From: a virus
Lineage: Duplodnaviria > Heunggongvirae > Uroviricota > Caudoviricetes
Direction: 5' to 3' (one strand)
DNA: 36,464 nucleotides
Virus record (IMG/VR): IMGVR_UViG_2645727593_000019
Shown: in pieces, positions 4,930-11,177 of the stretch
How the letters are laid out: the number at the start of each line of letters is the position of its first letter
Numbering within the stretch: the stretch's first letter is position 1
Made by a program: the position numbers and the translations under genes
The notes under the pieces: model-generated
What the model was told of the DNA's origin: nothing
The model's input: only the letters and a program-made list of their open reading frames with translations
The model's database searches: none

Positions 4930-5133
4930 ATGAACAAAAAGACCTGGTTTCGCGCATACATGTGGGCGCTGGTATGCGTCCTCGTCTCTCTCATTCTGTA
5001 TGCAGGACTACTCCCCCGAATGATTTCATCAGACAGCTCCTTCCTGGTATTGCTGGGAATTTTCATTGCCATGCTGTACCCGGCAGGCGTTGTTCGCCTT
5101 TTCAGTAAGTACATCAAGGAAATCAAACAATGA
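4930..5133 (+). CDS. small two-TM membrane protein (possible NfeD-like partner of the SPFH protein)
   Basis: Two hydrophobic stretches (WALVCVLVSLILYAGLL and FLVLLGIFIAMLYPAGVV); stop overlaps the start of the downstream SPFH gene. Confidence 0.5.
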   Translation: MNKKTWFRAYMWALVCVLVSLILYAGLLPRMISSDSSFLVLLGIFIAMLYPAGVVRLFSKYIKEIKQ

Positions 5134-5960
5134 AGAAATTCAGACTCTTTCAGATTCTCCCGCTTTTTGCCGCCATCCTGCTGGTTGGTTGCGATCGCGT
5201 TGAGCCAGGTAATGTGGGCATCAAAGTCAACAAACTGGGCGACGACAAAGGCGTCGGTGAAGTGGTTGGCGTTGGCCGCTACTGGACAGGCTGGAATACA
5301 GAGGTTTACATCTTCCCGACCTTCAAACAAATGAAGAGTTACGATGAGCCGTTCAACTTCCAGATGAGTGACGGCACAACCATCGGCTATCACATCGGCG
5401 TGGCCTACAAAGTTGATCCATCCAAAGTTACCACGGTGTTTCAGACCTACCGCAAAGGCGTGGACGACATTACCGACACTGACCTGCGCCAGAAGATCGC
5501 CGATGCACTCAACCGACTGGCCAGCAAAATGACCACCGATAAGTTTATCGACGGTGGTAAGTCTGAACTGCTGGATTCAGCACTTAAAGATATTCAGGAA
5601 GAGATGACCCCCATCGGTATTCAGGTCATGAGCCTCTCTTATGTCGGTAAACCGGAATATCCGCCAACCGTTATCGACAGCATTAACGCCAAAGTCACGG
5701 CAAACCAGAAAACCCTGCAACGCGAACAGGAAGTCAAGCAGCGCGAAGCAGAAGCCAACATGTTGCGCGCAGAAGCTGCCGGACAGGCCGATGCCATTCG
5801 CACAAAAGCCCAGGCTGAAGCCGACGCCATTCGTTTACGCGGCGAAGCTCTGCGCCAGAATCCCGGCGTTATGGAGCTGGAAGCAATCAACAAATGGAAC
5901 GGCACGCTGCCGCAATACATGACCAGTAACACCGCTGTTCCGTTCGTTCCCGTGAAGTAA
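5130..5960 (+). CDS. SPFH/band-7 (stomatin-prohibitin-like) lipoprotein
   Basis: Signal peptide with lipobox LLVGC; band-7-like core followed by an Ala/Glu/Gln/Arg-rich coiled-coil tail (REQEVKQREAEANMLRAEAAGQADAIRTKAQAEADAIRLRGEA). Confidence 0.7.
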   Translation: MKKFRLFQILPLFAAILLVGCDRVEPGNVGIKVNKLGDDKGVGEVVGVGRYWTGWNTEVYIFPTFKQMKSYDEPFNFQMSDGTTIGYHIGVAYKVDPSKVTTVFQTYRKGVDDITDTDLRQKIADALNRLASKMTTDKFIDGGKSELLDSALKDIQEEMTPIGIQVMSLSYVGKPEYPPTVIDSINAKVTANQKTLQREQEVKQREAEANMLRAEAAGQADAIRTKAQAEADAIRLRGEALRQNPGVMELEAINKWNGTLPQYMTSNTAVPFVPVK

Positions 5961-5966
5961 TGACAC

Positions 5967-5991
5967 CCGGCCAGTGCAAACCGCTGGCCGG
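5967..5991 (+). terminator. stem-loop after the SPFH gene (possible terminator)
   Basis: CCGGCCAG/CTGGCCGG 8-bp stem; the T-run starts only about 14 nt downstream. Confidence 0.3.
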
Positions 5992-6327
5992 AGCAGCATC
6001 AGGATTTTTTAGTATGCCGTTCTCACAAAAAAACCGCTTGCCATGCCGCAATCAGTCAGGTTACATTTCCGCTGCACCTCATAAAACGGGGGCCGGGATT
6101 GGAACCCCGCAGACTACAAGAGCGCACAACCGCGCCAGCGGTTTTTTTGTGCGTACTGTATTGCCACGTCTTTTTCGCACACGAATTATGGTGGGGCGTA
6201 CGGGGCCGATTTCGGTCGGGCCGGGATCTCTTGTAGCCGGTAGTTCCAACCCTGTACGTCTCACCACCCCGAGCTTGGAACCTCTGGATGGTGAGTTTTC
6301 ACAACTTACTACAAGAGGCCACATATC

Positions 6328-6558
6328 ATGGCAAACCGCAAACAGCACCGCGCTATCGCGGAGCGTCGTCACATCCAGACTGAAATCAACCGCAGACTTT
6401 CCCGCGCATTCCGCGTCGCTAAAATCATGCACATCAATATGCTGCATGAGCGTAGCTGCGAACTTTCAAACCTCTACTCATCCGCTGTTTTCAGCTATCT
6501 GGCGGATGATCTGCGCGAGCTTCAGCAGCTCATCCAGCAGCAAAACAAACTCCATTAA
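6328..6558 (+). CDS. hypothetical basic protein (76 aa)
   Basis: SD ACAAGAGG 9 nt before ATG 6328; the same SD motif precedes the 6631 gene. Confidence 0.45.
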   Translation: MANRKQHRAIAERRHIQTEINRRLSRAFRVAKIMHINMLHERSCELSNLYSSAVFSYLADDLRELQQLIQQQNKLH

Positions 6559-6630
6559 TTCCTGTTCCGGGCCTTTCCTGCACCTTGCGGCGGGAGGCCT
6601 TCGCACATCTGTAACAAGAGGATTGCCGCA

Positions 6631-6996
6631 ATGATTCTCGCCAACGACTTTCTTGAATACCTGCTCAACACAGAGCGTGATCTTGCCGTTCGCGTGCGTG
6701 AACGTTATGACATGTACCTGAAATACCTGCCTGTACCGCAGCTCGCTGACGGAAAGATTGTTATTGATGGTCGCTACATGATTGACAGCCACGAGGGAAA
6801 TTACAGGCTTTACCGCATTGAAGGTGGCACCCCGTACGTTATTGGCATTTACCAGCGCCCATCCTCTGCAATCGTCGATGTGATTGCCGACAGCATCCGC
6901 ATCACACATCGCCATGCCGACACAGAAGACACCGTGCTGGAAATTCAGCGGCTGGCTACAGTCTGCCGCGACACCCTGAATGGTATGACGAAGTAA
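6631..6996 (+). CDS. hypothetical protein immediately upstream of A
   Basis: Track ORF with SD AAGAGG. Confidence 0.5.
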   Translation: MILANDFLEYLLNTERDLAVRVRERYDMYLKYLPVPQLADGKIVIDGRYMIDSHEGNYRLYRIEGGTPYVIGIYQRPSSAIVDVIADSIRITHRHADTEDTVLEIQRLATVCRDTLNGMTK

Positions 6997-7002
6997 ATCA
7001 CT

Positions 7003-9825
7003 ATGACGGCAGAGTACATCAGGGACTGGCAACAACCGCGCCACGCAGTGGGGCGTGAAGGAACGGGGATCCCCGCTCCTGAATCCGCGCTTTCCTCCTG
7101 GCTGGATGCCTACCAGGCAGAGAACGAGCGCCGACAGGAAAAGGCTGATGCGGCGTTCTCCGCCACGCCGCTGGGCAACCTGATTAATAAAAGCCTGGAC
7201 GCACAGGAAAAACAGGACAAAACCATCACGCTGGCAGGAGACGCCAGAAGACAGGCACGCGGCGCGGTGGATGAAGCCATGGCCTCGCTGCGCCTGCTGC
7301 CGTCCTATCTGCGCGATCCGCTTATTCGCCACCTCTCCTTCCTGCGCAAAAAACAGGAAGTCGATCGCCGGAAAGGCAAAAAGAGCTGGCAGGCAGAACG
7401 CTATGCACGCGGAACCCTGCGCAAAATATTCGAACGTCTGGATCGCACTGACGGACACTGGCTGACACCGGGTTATCGCTCCCTTGCCGGACGCGAACGC
7501 CTGGACGATTTGCTTTACCTGCCGCAGCTCAACAAACACCAGATACAGACGCTGGCCACCATGACGGCGGCGATGTTCAGCAGCACCTTCGAAAAACTCT
7601 GCGATGGCTTTGGTGCGACTGATGGCGAGCTGACCATGGATGTAACGCTGAAGGCGTATCAGATGCTGGCCCGCATGGCGTTACACCTGCACGCCATGCC
7701 TCCGCATTATGACGCACTGACAACAGACAAAGGCCGGAGGAACGAACCAGACACGGAGCTGCTGCCGGGCGCAATCCTTCGCCTGACCTGTGCGGAATGG
7801 TGGAAACGCAAACTGTGGCTGTTACGTTGCGAGTGGAGAGAAGAACAACTCCGCGCCGCCTGTCTGGTTTCCAGAAAAACATCGCCCTATCTGAGCCAGG
7901 ATGCGTTAAGCGAGTTTCGCGCACAGCGCGAGAAAACACGCGATTTCCTGAAAAGTTTCATGCTGGAAAACGAAGACGGGTTCACGATTGATCTTGAGAC
8001 AGTGTATTACGCGGGAGTAAGTAACCCGGTTCACCGTAAGGCAGAAATGATGGCCACCATGAAGGGGCTGGAACTTCTGGCCGAAGCCCGTGGCGACAGA
8101 GCGGTGTTTCTGACTGTCACCTGCCCGTCAAAATACCACGCAACAACGGAGAACGGTCATCCGAATCCCAAATGGAACGGGGCCACTATGCGCGACTCCA
8201 GCGATTACCTGGTTAACTCGTTTTTTGCGGCGGTCCGCAAGAAACTGAACCGCGACGGCCTGCGCTGGTATGGCATCCGCACGGTGGAGCCTCACCATGA
8301 CGGCACCGTGCACTGGCATATGATGGTCTTTGCTCATCCGGAAGAAATCGACACCATTGTGTCCCACACCCGCGATATTGCCATTCAGGAAGATCGTCAC
8401 GAGCTGGGTGATGATATTACCCCACGCTTTAAGGCAGAGTACGTCGACGGCTCAAAAGGCACACCGACCAGCTACATCGCCACCTACATCGGAAAGAACC
8501 TGGACAGCCGCGCCGTGGATGGTATCGACCCGAAAACGGGCAAGCCACGCGTTGACCACGAAACCGGAAAATCAATGGCCGAGAGCGTGGAGCGCGCCAT
8601 CGGCTGGGCGCGCCTTCACCGGGTCCGCCAGTTCCAGTTCTTTGGCATCCCCTCCCGTCAGGTGTGGCGTGAACTGCGCCGCCTTGCCAGCCAGATGGCA
8701 CGCAACCCGGAAGGCCCGCAACGGCTGAAGGATGACGCAATGGATGCAGTGCTCGCTGCCGCTGATGCCGGGTGTTTTGCCTCCTACATTGAAAAACAGG
8801 GCGGCGTACTTGTTCCACGCAAAGACTACCTGATTCGCACCGCCTACGACCTCGCAGATGAGCTGAACGATTACGGCGAACAGAGCGTACAGATTTACGG
8901 GATCTGGTCACCACTCATCGGGGAGTCTTCCCGTGTGTGCACACATCCGGATAACTGGAAGCTGGTAAGACGTAAACCGGAAGCGGAAGACAGCGCCCGC
9001 GAAAATGGTTTTGACCTTCAGGGCGGCCCTGCCGCCCCTTGGACTCGTGGCAATAACTGTCCCCGTGTACAGGAAACAGGCAACAACGGGACAGAACAGC
9101 CGGAAGAACGGCCAGCACCGTGGCCGCAGCTTCCTGACGGCGTTGAAGTAAATGAATGGATGCGCTCACTGAAACGGCACGAACGCCGGGCGCTGATGCG
9201 TTCGCTTCGTGACAAACAGGCAAAAAACAGCAGCGATGAAATGCAGAACTGGACACAGAGCCGCAAACAGCAGCGGCCTTTGCCTGATAACCACGAGTTA
9301 CTCGCTAAAGAATGGCGGGAGTCTGCTGAATCTCTCGGCCTGCATATCGGTGAACAACAGATGCAGCACCTGTTACGGGGCGGCAGTCTGTACGTTGACG
9401 GCAGCATCATTGCACCGCAGGGATTTGAAATTGTACGCAAACCGGATACCCGCCCGGACAGCCGAATCACGCAGCTCTGGCAGCGTCTGAGCCGTAATCA
9501 TGGCGTAAGCAGCACGGAGATCCGCCATAACCCGGTCGCCAGCTATCTGGCACAGCTGGGGGCATCAGACCCTGAAGCCGCCGCACGCCTGGCATCCACA
9601 CTTCAGCAGGACCAGAACACCATGAAAACACCCGTTACCGTGCTTTCTGACATGCTGCGCGCCATCCGCGACGCAGAGCACGCACAGAGAATCAGTGAAA
9701 CCACTGAACGCGCCAGCCGCAAAGCAGACCTGCTGCGGGGTGGCCTGACCAGTGGAAACAAAAAACAGACAGAAACGGGACTCACGAATCCCGTAAATGA
9801 GCAAAAAACGCGCAGCGATATATGA
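7003..9825 (+). CDS. A: rolling-circle replication initiator, P2 A family (HUH endonuclease)
   Basis: HUH motif VHWHMMVFAH (about 8305-8335) and catalytic YxxxY pair SYIATYIGKN (about 8466-8498); position after the early operon; 940 aa with a long C-terminal extension. Confidence 0.9.
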   Translation: MTAEYIRDWQQPRHAVGREGTGIPAPESALSSWLDAYQAENERRQEKADAAFSATPLGNLINKSLDAQEKQDKTITLAGDARRQARGAVDEAMASLRLLPSYLRDPLIRHLSFLRKKQEVDRRKGKKSWQAERYARGTLRKIFERLDRTDGHWLTPGYRSLAGRERLDDLLYLPQLNKHQIQTLATMTAAMFSSTFEKLCDGFGATDGELTMDVTLKAYQMLARMALHLHAMPPHYDALTTDKGRRNEPDTELLPGAILRLTCAEWWKRKLWLLRCEWREEQLRAACLVSRKTSPYLSQDALSEFRAQREKTRDFLKSFMLENEDGFTIDLETVYYAGVSNPVHRKAEMMATMKGLELLAEARGDRAVFLTVTCPSKYHATTENGHPNPKWNGATMRDSSDYLVNSFFAAVRKKLNRDGLRWYGIRTVEPHHDGTVHWHMMVFAHPEEIDTIVSHTRDIAIQEDRHELGDDITPRFKAEYVDGSKGTPTSYIATYIGKNLDSRAVDGIDPKTGKPRVDHETGKSMAESVERAIGWARLHRVRQFQFFGIPSRQVWRELRRLASQMARNPEGPQRLKDDAMDAVLAAADAGCFASYIEKQGGVLVPRKDYLIRTAYDLADELNDYGEQSVQIYGIWSPLIGESSRVCTHPDNWKLVRRKPEAEDSARENGFDLQGGPAAPWTRGNNCPRVQETGNNGTEQPEERPAPWPQLPDGVEVNEWMRSLKRHERRALMRSLRDKQAKNSSDEMQNWTQSRKQQRPLPDNHELLAKEWRESAESLGLHIGEQQMQHLLRGGSLYVDGSIIAPQGFEIVRKPDTRPDSRITQLWQRLSRNHGVSSTEIRHNPVASYLAQLGASDPEAAARLASTLQQDQNTMKTPVTVLSDMLRAIRDAEHAQRISETTERASRKADLLRGGLTSGNKKQTETGLTNPVNEQKTRSDI

Positions 9826-9901: not shown

Positions 9902-10861
9902 ATGAAAATTTACATCGACGACGGCTCCACCAACATCAAGCTGGCATGGACTGAGAACGGCGAACGCCGCAACGCCATCAGCCCGAACAGCTTCAAGTCG
10001 GAATGGTCTGCGCCGTTCGGTGGCTCGCAGCCTGCTAACTACATGCTTGATGGCGTGCGCTATGGTTTTGATCCGGTCAGCGATCGCTTTGTCCAGACGA
10101 CCGACACGCAATACCAGTACAGCGATGTGAATGTCATTGCCATTCATCACGCGCTGGTCAAATCAGACATCACGCCACAGGAAGTGGATGTGGTTGTTAC
10201 CCTGCCACTGAGCGAATATTTCGACACAAACGCACAGCCGGACATGGCCAACATCAACCGCAAAAAAGCGAACGTCATGCGCCCGGTGGAGTACCAGAAC
10301 GGCGAAGCATTCACTATCCGTAACGTACGGGTTATGCCTGAATCCATTCCGGCTGGCTTTAAAGCACTGGCTGACATGAGTCCGTTTGAATCCCTGCTGA
10401 TTGTGGATTTGGGCGGAACCACGCTGGATGTGGCAAAGGTTCAGGGGCAACTGGCAGGTATCAGCCAGGTGTTTTGCGATCCACACGTAGGCGTTTCTCT
10501 TATGGCCGATGCCGTACTGTCGGTGATGGCCACTAACGGTATGCGCACCAGTCACCACATCGCCAATACCATTATCGAACATCGCCATAATGAAGCCTGG
10601 CTGCGCCAGCACATCCACAATGACGCGCATTACGCCAGCCTGATGGCGGTTATTCGTGAAAAGGAAGAAACACTGAAACAACGCGTGATCCGCGCGCTGG
10701 CGGTTTTTTCGGGTTACGGGCGGGTGATGGTTGTCGGTGGCGGGGCGGAGATTGTGGCACCCGCTATCCGCGAAGCCTGCGGAGTTAATGCGACTTTCAT
10801 CGCGGACGGGGTGCCACAGTTTGCTCTGGTTAATGGGCTGTACGCAATGGACAAGGAGTAA
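9902..10861 (+). CDS. parM: actin-like ATPase, ParM/StbA family
   Basis: N-terminus MKIYIDDGSTNIKLAW and motifs DLGGTTLD, VMPESIPAG, VVGGGAE match plasmid R1 ParM as I recall it. Confidence 0.85.
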   Translation: MKIYIDDGSTNIKLAWTENGERRNAISPNSFKSEWSAPFGGSQPANYMLDGVRYGFDPVSDRFVQTTDTQYQYSDVNVIAIHHALVKSDITPQEVDVVVTLPLSEYFDTNAQPDMANINRKKANVMRPVEYQNGEAFTIRNVRVMPESIPAGFKALADMSPFESLLIVDLGGTTLDVAKVQGQLAGISQVFCDPHVGVSLMADAVLSVMATNGMRTSHHIANTIIEHRHNEAWLRQHIHNDAHYASLMAVIREKEETLKQRVIRALAVFSGYGRVMVVGGGAEIVAPAIREACGVNATFIADGVPQFALVNGLYAMDKE

Positions 10862-10865
10862 ACCA

Positions 10866-11177
10866 ATGACGACACCAACCAGACGGATAAGTTTCTATCT
10901 GAAGCCCGCCGCCGTCAAGAACGAAGGAGAAGCATGCGCCTGGCTGGACAGCCTTACACCAGAAGCCCGCAAAAGCGGCCAACGCGTGGCTTTTCTGGCC
11001 GGGCTGGCACTTCTGAAGACGAATCCGGCAGAGGCTTACCGACTGGCCGCATGGGCTGATGATGAGATGTTACCTGTGACACAAATCAGCTCAAAAAAGT
11101 TTGAAGCACAGTCTGCACCAGTGGCTAAGATAACCAGCCAGATGGCTGGGAATATCCGGGCGTTATTTCCTGAGTAA
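10866..11177 (+). CDS. parR: ParR/StbB-like DNA-binding adaptor
   Basis: Track ORF 10731..11177 trimmed to ATG 10866; N-terminus RRISFYLKPA...LDSLTPEARKSGQRVAFLAGLAL parallels R1 ParR; starts 5 nt after parM. Confidence 0.6.
   Translation: MTTPTRRISFYLKPAAVKNEGEACAWLDSLTPEARKSGQRVAFLAGLALLKTNPAEAYRLAAWADDEMLPVTQISSKKFEAQSAPVAKITSQMAGNIRALFPE

Follow-up and report, generated by a model that had tools for sequence, protein, structure and literature searches.

An isrK-C4 RNA pair of the P1 and P4 immunity type upstream of an epsilon-like gene in a P88-like prophage

Introduction

Positions 5961 to 6327 of IMG/VR virus record IMGVR_UViG_2645727593_000019 form a gap of 367 base pairs (bp) between two phage genes, and the question that this locus raises is what the gap does. 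The window, as the term is used here, is the whole stretch of DNA that was analyzed (36,464 nucleotides, nt), and all positions refer to it unless another locus is named. The window was a P88-like E. coli prophage, P2-like and of the genus Xuanwuvirus (Peduoviridae). Over positions 5900-6650, the phage record nearest to it was P88, with 92.6% identity, and 1297 of 5426 complete E. coli genomes contained a close copy of the region (at least ~80% identical). The gap is flanked as follows.

5130-5960: SPFH/Band_7 gene, upstream of the gap
6328-6558, + strand: open reading frame (ORF) for a 76-amino-acid epsilon-like protein, downstream of the gap

A previous sequence-only reading had described the gap as GC-rich, structured, and non-coding, and had suggested that it could encode a small RNA or a retron-like or tRNA-like element, or serve as a replication or regulatory site upstream of gene A. 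The analysis presented here indicated that the gap probably served as the control region for a secondary immunity switch that is based on RNA and is of the P1 immI/P4 immunity type, located in a P88-like early operon, and we put the probability of this reading at about 85%. The observations behind it were matches to both RNA families, sequence complementarities that covaried, and the conservation of a promoter, a terminator, and an open frame.

Two RNA families match the gap

Our Rfam scan took in the whole window, and exactly two matches exceeded their gathering scores. Both were located in the gap on the + strand, and both covered the full length of the corresponding model. The two matches and the signals found around the first of them were as follows.

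6038-6067, + strand: sigma-70 promoter from a consensus scan (-35 TTGCCA at 6038-6043, 18-nt spacer, -10 TACATT at 6062-6067)
6074-6148, + strand: isrK/P4 seqA-type RNA (RF01394; 67.4 bits, gathering score 50; model positions 1-77 of 77)
6128-6148, + strand: intrinsic terminator of isrK from a terminator scan (stem at 6128-6143, U-run at 6142-6148)
6184-6271, + strand: C4/P4 CI-type antisense RNA (RF01695, clan CL00128; 79.2 bits, gathering score 45; model positions 1-87 of 87; E = 9e-16)

In addition, the c4-a1b1 model (RF03163, "a1, b1 targets of C4") gave a weak, sub-threshold match at 6061-6113, over the 5' half of isrK. The Rfam C4 and isrK models are known to detect CI and seqA (PMC3632133; PMC10111431). 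The equivalence of isrK with seqA and of C4 with CI has been published, and the pair has been described in P4, P1, P7, N15, and lambdoid prophages (PMC3632133; PMC10111431; PMC4825925). Thus, of the options listed in the sequence-only reading, that of a small RNA was borne out by two families.

To place these matches in context, the window was compared with three sets of loci. The first contained 14 module-bearing phage loci, which included P88, two other Xuanwuviruses, Stx and other lambdoid phages, ST64B, N15, a Klebsiella phage, a Yersinia phage, and P1. The second was P4, and the third contained 16 further loci chosen via diverged epsilon-like proteins. The diverged loci were gathered through protein database and contig look-ups; a single-protein scan of species-representative genomes gave 3 loci. 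In all of the Rfam-scanned loci, C4 was preceded by isrK, except that in P1 it was preceded by c4-a1b1 alone. Furthermore, in 16 of the 16 Rfam-scanned epsilon-like loci, the window included, the epsilon-like gene was preceded by isrK and C4 at a constant distance. Five further epsilon-like loci were placed by alignment only.

The stem-loops that had been noted in the gap were all three present, as judged by folding against shuffled sequences and by the terminator scan. The segment at 6190-6268 formed a long closing stem around two hairpins, with a folding energy of -43.3 kcal/mol (z = -4.3); none of 200 shuffles was as stable, and the minimum-free-energy fold was the Rfam C4 consensus. The 27 internal pairs of C4 were 99.6-100% paired in the 16 epsilon-like loci, and 5 of these pairs were altered on both sides. 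Based on the annotated P1 c4 RNA, the mature C4 is predicted to span 6190-6268 (79 nt). RNase P processing of such C4-type precursors has been reported in the P1 and P4 literature. In the case of isrK, the stretch as a whole was no more stable than its shuffles (z = -0.9), and its significance stems from the covariance-model score rather than from folding energy. The description of the gap as GC-rich was only marginally correct: the G+C content of the gap was 54.5%, that of the window was 52.8%, and the C4 segment alone stood out, with 61%.

The transcription start predicted from the promoter (~6074) coincided with the first base of the isrK model. In the alignment of the 16 loci, the TTGC core of the -35 element was invariant and the -10 element was TACATT in 14, while the spacer varied freely. 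The hairpin and run of seven T nucleotides at 6128-6148 was the sole terminator-like site on the + strand between 1000 and 11000 that had an unbroken T run directly after the stem. Five of the six pairs in its stem were invariant across the 16 loci, and the sixth changed on one side only. As far as can be judged from sequence, isrK seems to have a promoter of its own and a 3' Rho-independent terminator.

Address words pair and covary

C4-type RNAs carry two short words, a' and b', and the window contained two flanking sets of partners for them, as listed below.

6099-6105, + strand: a1, UUGGAAC, in the hairpin loop of isrK
6114-6122, + strand: b1, CUACAAGAG, in the single-stranded linker of isrK
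6228-6236, + strand: b', CUCUUGUAG, in the loop of C4 hairpin 2
6243-6249, + strand: a', GUUCCAA, in the C4 junction
6275-6281, + strand: a2, UUGGAAC, in the downstream messenger RNA (mRNA) target
6309-6317, + strand: b2, CUACAAGAG, in the downstream mRNA target

Word a' was exactly complementary (7 nt) to both a1 and a2, and b' was exactly complementary (9 nt) to both b1 and b2. Apart from the a1/b1 and a2/b2 pairs, the + strand of the 36-kb window contained no composite a+b site. Word b2 overlapped the Shine-Dalgarno sequence of the epsilon-like gene (AAGAGG, 6313-6318) and ended 11 nt before the ATG.

In the comparison loci, the C4 scaffold was conserved while a' and b' differed between loci, and the a1/b1 and a2/b2 words on either side changed in step with them. 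The four helices behaved as follows in the 16 epsilon-like loci.

a1:a': 100% of cells paired, 5 of 7 pairs changed on both sides
b1:b': 100% of cells paired, 6 of 9 pairs changed on both sides
a':a2: 100% of cells paired, 5 of 7 pairs changed on both sides
b':b2: 97.9% of cells paired, 5 of 9 pairs changed on both sides

There were thus 11 covarying pairs at isrK (a1:a' and b1:b') and 10 at the downstream target (a':a2 and b':b2). When the partner columns were slid by 1-3 positions, pairing fell to ~40%, and none of 500 shuffles reached the observed covariation score. Because related loci are not phylogenetically independent, the shuffle statistics overstate the significance; the slid-partner controls and the count of distinct word combinations are the more reliable evidence. 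There were 15 different a/b combinations among the 16 loci, and four Xuanwuviruses whose flanks were ~90% identical had four different ones. A further 16 phage loci behaved alike in word pairing. This diversity is the pattern that would be expected if the words set immunity specificity, as in P1 and P7. The sequence-only reading had proposed a covariance-model scan and had held that a lack of covariation support would count against it. The scan found isrK and C4, and the covarying pairing in the 16 loci supplied the support. The pairing partners of both RNAs covaried strongly, and the proposed regulatory site upstream of A was supported as well.

A candidate for a third C4 target was located at the ribosome-binding site of orf121, the next gene downstream (UAACAAGAG, 6612-6620). 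It was rejected as a chance match because it remained constant while b' changed among relatives. When IMG/VR was scanned loosely for the a...b word pair, the only matches were single, variably spaced chance matches. An exact IMG/VR scan for the C4 specificity of the window found 5 loci, all of which were P88-like, and found no satellites that shared the a/b address of the window.

Some additional observations concerned the target and the relatives of the window. The epsilon-like Shine-Dalgarno sequence was also part of a local hairpin, CCUCU...AGAGG (window 6283-6318). Moreover, UGGUGAG at 6289-6295 is complementary to CUCACCA at 6260-6266, in the 3' strand of the C4 closing stem. Pairing between the two may give the transcript another fold before processing, comparable to structures A and B of the Gifsy-1 locus. 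One locus, NZ_JBQPOM010000071.1 (L020), was labelled Vagococcus sp. and had an enterobacterial P88-like early region with isrK, C4, and an epsilon-like gene that was 84% identical to that of the window; given the Gram-positive label, assembly contamination is likely. Another, IMGVR_UViG_2654587568_000020 (L157), encoded proteins that were 100% identical to those of the window at identical coordinates, and it is probably the same prophage sequence.

A stop-free frame crosses both RNAs and the epsilon-like gene

The same DNA was crossed by a long reading frame, which we refer to as eta-like after its counterpart in P4.

6014-6634, + strand: eta-like ("Ash") frame, PF10554; conserved ATG at 6014, preceded by AGGA at 6001-6004

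In the window, the frame was open back to an ATG at 5960 that overlapped the SPFH stop codon (TAATG). It ran across the promoter, isrK, C4, and a2/b2, then across the entire epsilon-like gene, which is read in another frame, and finally across the spacer behind that gene. The ORF at 5960-6634 matched PF10554 (Phage_ASH) with 31.1 bits (cutoff 26). The match covered amino acids 35-118, which correspond to nt 6062-6313, i.e., to the isrK and C4 DNA. PF10554 also matched the obsolete "cI protein" ORF of P4, a part of eta, and the N-terminal extension that lambdoid Rha anti-repressors carry. Besides window 6062-6313, matches to it were located at 8168-8584 in locus L003 and at 1146-2297 in locus L006. 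The Prokaryotic Genome Annotation Pipeline (PGAP) had made an "ash family protein" pseudogene of the region.

In all 16 epsilon-like loci, the eta-like frame had no stop codons in the RNA region, the epsilon-like gene, or the spacer; the other non-epsilon frame of the epsilon coding sequence had 1-6 stops in these loci. In 15 of the 16, the frame ended in an ATGA overlap with the next gene (orf121 in the window), and in 15 of the 16 the length of the spacer was a multiple of 3, across at least 5 unrelated spacer sequences. Synonymous resampling of the epsilon-like genes gave a probability of 0.005-0.35 per gene that the eta-like frame would be open. P1, N15, and some other phages had the RNAs without such a long frame. 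It appears that the frame is kept open rather than kept as a protein, and it seems to be kept for the passage of ribosomes. The statements that the gap was non-coding and that the ORF covering it was implausible are thus doubtful, since the ORF passed the PF10554 threshold and the frame was free of stops in every one of the 16 loci.

The epsilon-like gene and the genes behind it

The 76-amino-acid epsilon-like protein matched the Pfam family "Derepression" (PF25738) with 29.5 bits (cutoff 27). In a BLASTP comparison with P4 epsilon, the identity was 29% (E = 1e-8), a weak but consistent match. The variable columns of the gene were distributed 36/27/58 over codon positions 1/2/3, which is the signature of a real protein gene, and the family had 148 members of 72-80 amino acids. 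The genes that followed were these.

6631-6996, + strand: orf121, 121 amino acids, no known family; sole match phrog_3237, which has no assigned function
7003-9825, + strand: gpA replication endonuclease, 940 amino acids (PF05840 Phage_GPA, E = 2e-130)

Both genes are in the same transcription unit as the epsilon-like gene, which would be the first gene under the switch. In the 19 of the 21 epsilon-like loci whose gene content was checked, the epsilon-like gene was followed by a GPA gene, either directly or after 1-2 small ORFs. NCBIfam gave no names for any of the four proteins that were tested.

The repressor of the window, encoded at 1063-1404 on the - strand, was a P2 C-family protein that was 50.6% identical to the C proteins of P2 and Wphi. 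P4 E (epsilon), an anti-repressor, binds P2 C (PMC2995052). Because of these two points, it is plausible, although speculative, that the epsilon-like protein could be an anti-repressor of the phage's own P2 C-type repressor.

In five loci (L021-L024 and L031), the isrK-C4-epsilon-like block was followed directly by a shorter, 640-amino-acid Phage_GPA gene. The surroundings of these five were lambdoid-type, with DUF1627, Ead/Ea22, DUF968, and antiterminator Q, and the block therefore seems to move between phage types as a cassette. A G+C-rich hairpin was located between the epsilon-like gene and orf121 at ~6568-6601 (GGCCUUUCCUGC...GCGGGAGGCC), and it was conserved in most P88-like loci.

Comparison with known systems

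Close parallels were the immI region of P1 and P7, in geometry, and the P4 immunity region, in gene order. The Rfam C4 model matched both P1 and the window. In P1, as in the window, the order was promoter, a1, b1, C4, a2, b2, start codon, and the lengths of the words were alike (7 nt and 8-9 nt). The distance from the -10 element to a1 was 32 nt in the window and in P1 (promoter P1c4), and the spacing from a1 to b1 was 15 nt in the window and 14 nt in P1. In both, b2 overlapped the ribosome-binding site and ended 11 nt before the start codon of the first controlled gene, which was epsilon-like in the window and icd in P1. Relatives of the window differed in their specificity words, as P1 differs from P7. 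The differences were that the upstream a1/b1 words were part of a full isrK-type RNA with its own terminator in the window, whereas P1 had the c4-a1b1 match only; that the first controlled gene was followed by gpA in the window and by ant in P1; and that an eta-like frame covered the region in the window but not in P1.

In P4, the same two Rfam models matched at the seqA and CI positions, with order and orientation as in the window, and the genes behind them were epsilon, orf151, and alpha. P4 and the window also shared a long PF10554 frame over the RNAs, an internal constitutive-type promoter within that frame, an epsilon homologue as the next gene, and a replication gene downstream. In contrast to P4, which is a satellite, the window was a complete P2-like phage, and the satellite gene set (alpha primase, sid, delta, psu) was not found in it. 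The region would work like the P4 immunity region, but it is not part of a P4-like satellite. The replication protein of the window was the rolling-circle nuclease gpA, whereas that of P4 is the alpha primase-helicase. The gene whose ribosome-binding site coincided with b2/seqC was epsilon-like in the window, in a different frame from eta, and kil in P4, which is nested in frame within eta. The long frame crossed all of the epsilon-like gene in the window and stopped at the start of epsilon in P4. The specificity words of P4 differed from those of the window.

The Salmonella Gifsy-1 locus isrK-orf45(STnc1160)-anrP resembled the window in that an isrK RNA with its own promoter was followed by a C4-type RNA, in that IsrK was complementary to the downstream RNA, and in that the next gene was of the anti-repressor type, with translation that depends on RNA interplay in Gifsy-1 and would do so in the window. 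The isrK terminator of Gifsy-1 is leaky. Gifsy-1 is lambdoid and AnrP is the controlled protein, whereas the window was P2-like with an epsilon-like protein; the published output of Gifsy-1 is the AntQ antiterminator, whereas the output in the window would be replication gene A. Both RNAs, with matching covarying words, were also found in Stx2 phages, mEp460, cdtI, ST64B, and N15. The isrK-C4 modules of lambdoid, N15-type, and other prophages were located in the early operon, just before anti-repressor and replication genes. They were ~72% identical to the window at the nucleotide level, and in most of the lambdoid copies the long frame was fused in frame to a Rha/Ant domain.

Proposed mechanism

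In the model that we propose, the promoter at 6038-6067 would fire and transcripts would begin near 6074. The intrinsic terminator would end most of these transcripts, which would yield an isrK/seqA-like RNA of ~75 nt, and C4 would be excised from the read-through transcripts as a stable antisense RNA of ~79 nt. The b' and a' words of C4 would pair with a2/b2 on the mRNA and mask the ribosome-binding site of the epsilon-like gene. This pairing would stop translation and, via polarity or premature termination, would also stop transcription of the epsilon-like gene, orf121, and gene A. The a1/b1 words of isrK would pair with C4, either inside the precursor, in cis, or as a decoy acting in trans, and the switch would be set by the isrK:C4 balance. 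Transcripts from an upstream early promoter would be translated throughout in the eta-like frame; by analogy with P4 eta, C4 would then be stripped or blocked, termination would be prevented, and lytic transcription would reach gene A.

C4 processing, the direction in which regulation acts, the function of isrK as a decoy, and anti-termination through translation are taken from P1, P4, and Gifsy-1. Specifically, the P1 record assigns to b2 the "repression of icd ant translation". In P4, CI brings about premature termination (PMC4825925; PMC10111431), and translation of P4 eta prevents termination (PMC10111431). In Gifsy-1, IsrK is the seqA equivalent and STnc1160 the CI equivalent; the short form of IsrK activates translation of the anti-repressor operon that lies downstream, and STnc1160, a C4-like RNA, requires the isrK promoter (PMC4825925). 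Hfq binding, read-through to the mRNA, and activation in trans by the short form are known only for Gifsy-1 isrK (PMC4825925).

Several points weighed against an immunity switch of this kind. Where the RNAs end, how they are processed, and in which direction they regulate would all follow from homology, and translation of the eta-like frame is suggested solely by its lack of stop codons; the eta-like peptide was poorly conserved over the epsilon overlap (59% against 71%). The PF25738 match of the epsilon-like protein was just over the threshold, and no NCBIfam model matched the protein. We also rejected two proposed equivalences for want of similarity, that of the epsilon-like protein with P1 Icd, which means that the controlled protein differs from the P1 case, and that of orf121 with P4 orf151. 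Furthermore, the replication gene was gpA, where P4 has alpha, and the switch may therefore have other consequences. Finally, a second promoter-like site was called before C4 in the window (6161-6189), and it could free C4 from isrK read-through. As an independent C4 promoter it was rejected, as its -35 element was TCGCCA or TCGTCA in 13 of the 16 relatives and was not conserved, and it is probably not the normal source of C4.

Alternative explanations

The identity of the RNAs could be correct and their main job a different one. C4 might act chiefly in trans against superinfecting P88-like phages of the same a/b type or against P4-like satellites, which would make the region a heteroimmunity or anti-satellite device. 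The 15 a/b combinations in 16 loci, found among phages that are otherwise ~90% identical, are what selection for immunity specificity would give (compare P1 and P7), and Barquist et al. raised an anti-satellite function for the lambdoid copies (PMC3632133). However, the exact specificity of the window occurred in IMG/VR in P88-like loci and in no satellite, and the words of P4 were different. Self-regulation and superinfection immunity are also compatible, and both operate in P1 and P4. We consider a chiefly trans role unlikely, yet it deserves more weight than any of the readings in which the RNAs are absent.

Among the latter, the region might be a plain gene for an "Ash" family protein, with conservation that reflects the protein and no functional RNAs. 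The above-threshold PF10554 match, the PGAP name, and the frame that was open in 16 of 16 loci would fit such a gene, but a protein cannot explain three-way compensatory changes of a'/b' with a1/b1 and a2/b2 in 15 combinations. Both covariance models also scored far above their gathering scores, P1, N15, and other phages had the RNAs without the long ORF, and the protein-level homology ended where the RNA homology ended (amino acids 21-141), all of which makes an Ash gene very improbable. It is slightly more improbable still that the region is an inert untranslated spacer whose hairpins merely act as terminators or mRNA stabilizers for the SPFH gene and the early operon. The hairpin at 5967-5991 does resemble a 3' stabilizer of the SPFH gene, and the hairpin with seven T nucleotides is a canonical terminator; against this, the module was conserved in phages without the SPFH gene, two Rfam families passed their thresholds, the internal promoter was conserved, and the long-range pairing covaried. 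We gave the least credence of all to a retron-like or tRNA-like element or a gpA replication origin, for which the acceptor-like closing stem of C4, its 3' CCACC, and the position upstream of gene A might speak. ARAGORN found no tRNA or tmRNA (transfer-messenger RNA) in the region, and C4 is tRNA-like only by that closing stem. No msr/msd retron family reached threshold in the whole-window Rfam scan, and there was no reverse transcriptase among the Pfam-scanned neighbor proteins. The region is not a retron or a tRNA. As for an origin, no sign of one was seen, although no dedicated repeat search was run, and the repeated words of the gap were the a/b target words of the RNAs. P2-type origins lie inside gene A.

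The immunity switch can be extended to a broader reading. The eta-like frame with promoter, isrK, and C4, together with the epsilon-like gene and gpA, may form a mobile RNA-gated replication/derepression cassette of P2-like and lambdoid-type prophages that is related to the P4 immunity region. Its two-word address would diversify into many immunity types, its stop-free frame would serve as a track rather than a peptide, letting early-operon ribosomes override C4 and termination and couple to the next gene, and the phage would have, in the epsilon-like protein, an anti-repressor of its own directed at its P2 C-type repressor. We advance this combination tentatively, at somewhat less than even odds.

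Relation to published work

At least one deposited phage record already annotates an isrK-C4 pair. For P88-like or P2-like phages, we found the pair described nowhere, and the P88 genome paper appears to be without a description. Existing records call the region a truncated "ash family protein", hypothetical proteins on either strand, or the N terminus of a "transcriptional regulator". Recognizing it as an isrK-C4 switch corrects these annotations. The sequence-only reading had itself overlooked the P1/P4 identity of the region and the conserved overlapping frame. The parts that may go beyond published work are the fixed linkage of the module to epsilon-like and gpA genes in P2-like and lambdoid-type backgrounds, the very high diversity of the address words, and the stop-free frame across the whole epsilon-like gene.

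There are several implications. PF10554 largely mirrors RNA genes, and a survey of P4-like satellites took this family as the "epsilon" marker (PMC8628076); P4 epsilon itself belonged to PF25738 and not to PF10554. P88-like phages, which are of the helper type, would have a second layer of control that is based on RNA, acts on an anti-repressor-like gene and on replication, and is homologous to that of their satellite P4. The natural address variants are, in effect, ready-made compensatory mutants for RNA-based immunity specificity.

Additional observations

The first stem-loop of the gap was located outside the conserved module.

5967-5991, + strand: stem-loop after the SPFH stop codon, CCGGCCAGUG...CGCUGGCCGG

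It had a 10-bp stem and a folding energy of -20.3 kcal/mol (z = -4.1 against dinucleotide shuffles). It is no canonical intrinsic terminator, as it lacked an adjacent U-run, and the terminator scan did not call it. In Xuanwuviruses without the SPFH gene, homology to the window began only at ~6024, and for this reason the hairpin was assigned to the SPFH cargo gene rather than to the conserved RNA module, an assignment that the sequence-only reading had also missed. The lipoprotein-like SPFH/Band_7 gene (5130-5960), a 67-amino-acid hydrophobic ORF (4930-5133), and this strong hairpin formed an upstream cargo block (4930-5991) that was carried by some P88-like phages and was absent from others.

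Two other Rfam matches were located near C4 modules of other phages. One was ryfA RNA in Yersinia phage vB_YpM_44 (L014, 115-413, - strand), and the other was sRNA-Xcc1, which lay over the "antB2" anti-repressor ORF of phage P13374 (L010, 2523-2606, + strand). In the window, gpA was directly followed by ParM (StbA_N and ParM_N) and a Plasmid_stab_B protein (9902-11177). This partition module of the plasmid type in a P2-like prophage hints at a possible plasmid state, as in P4.

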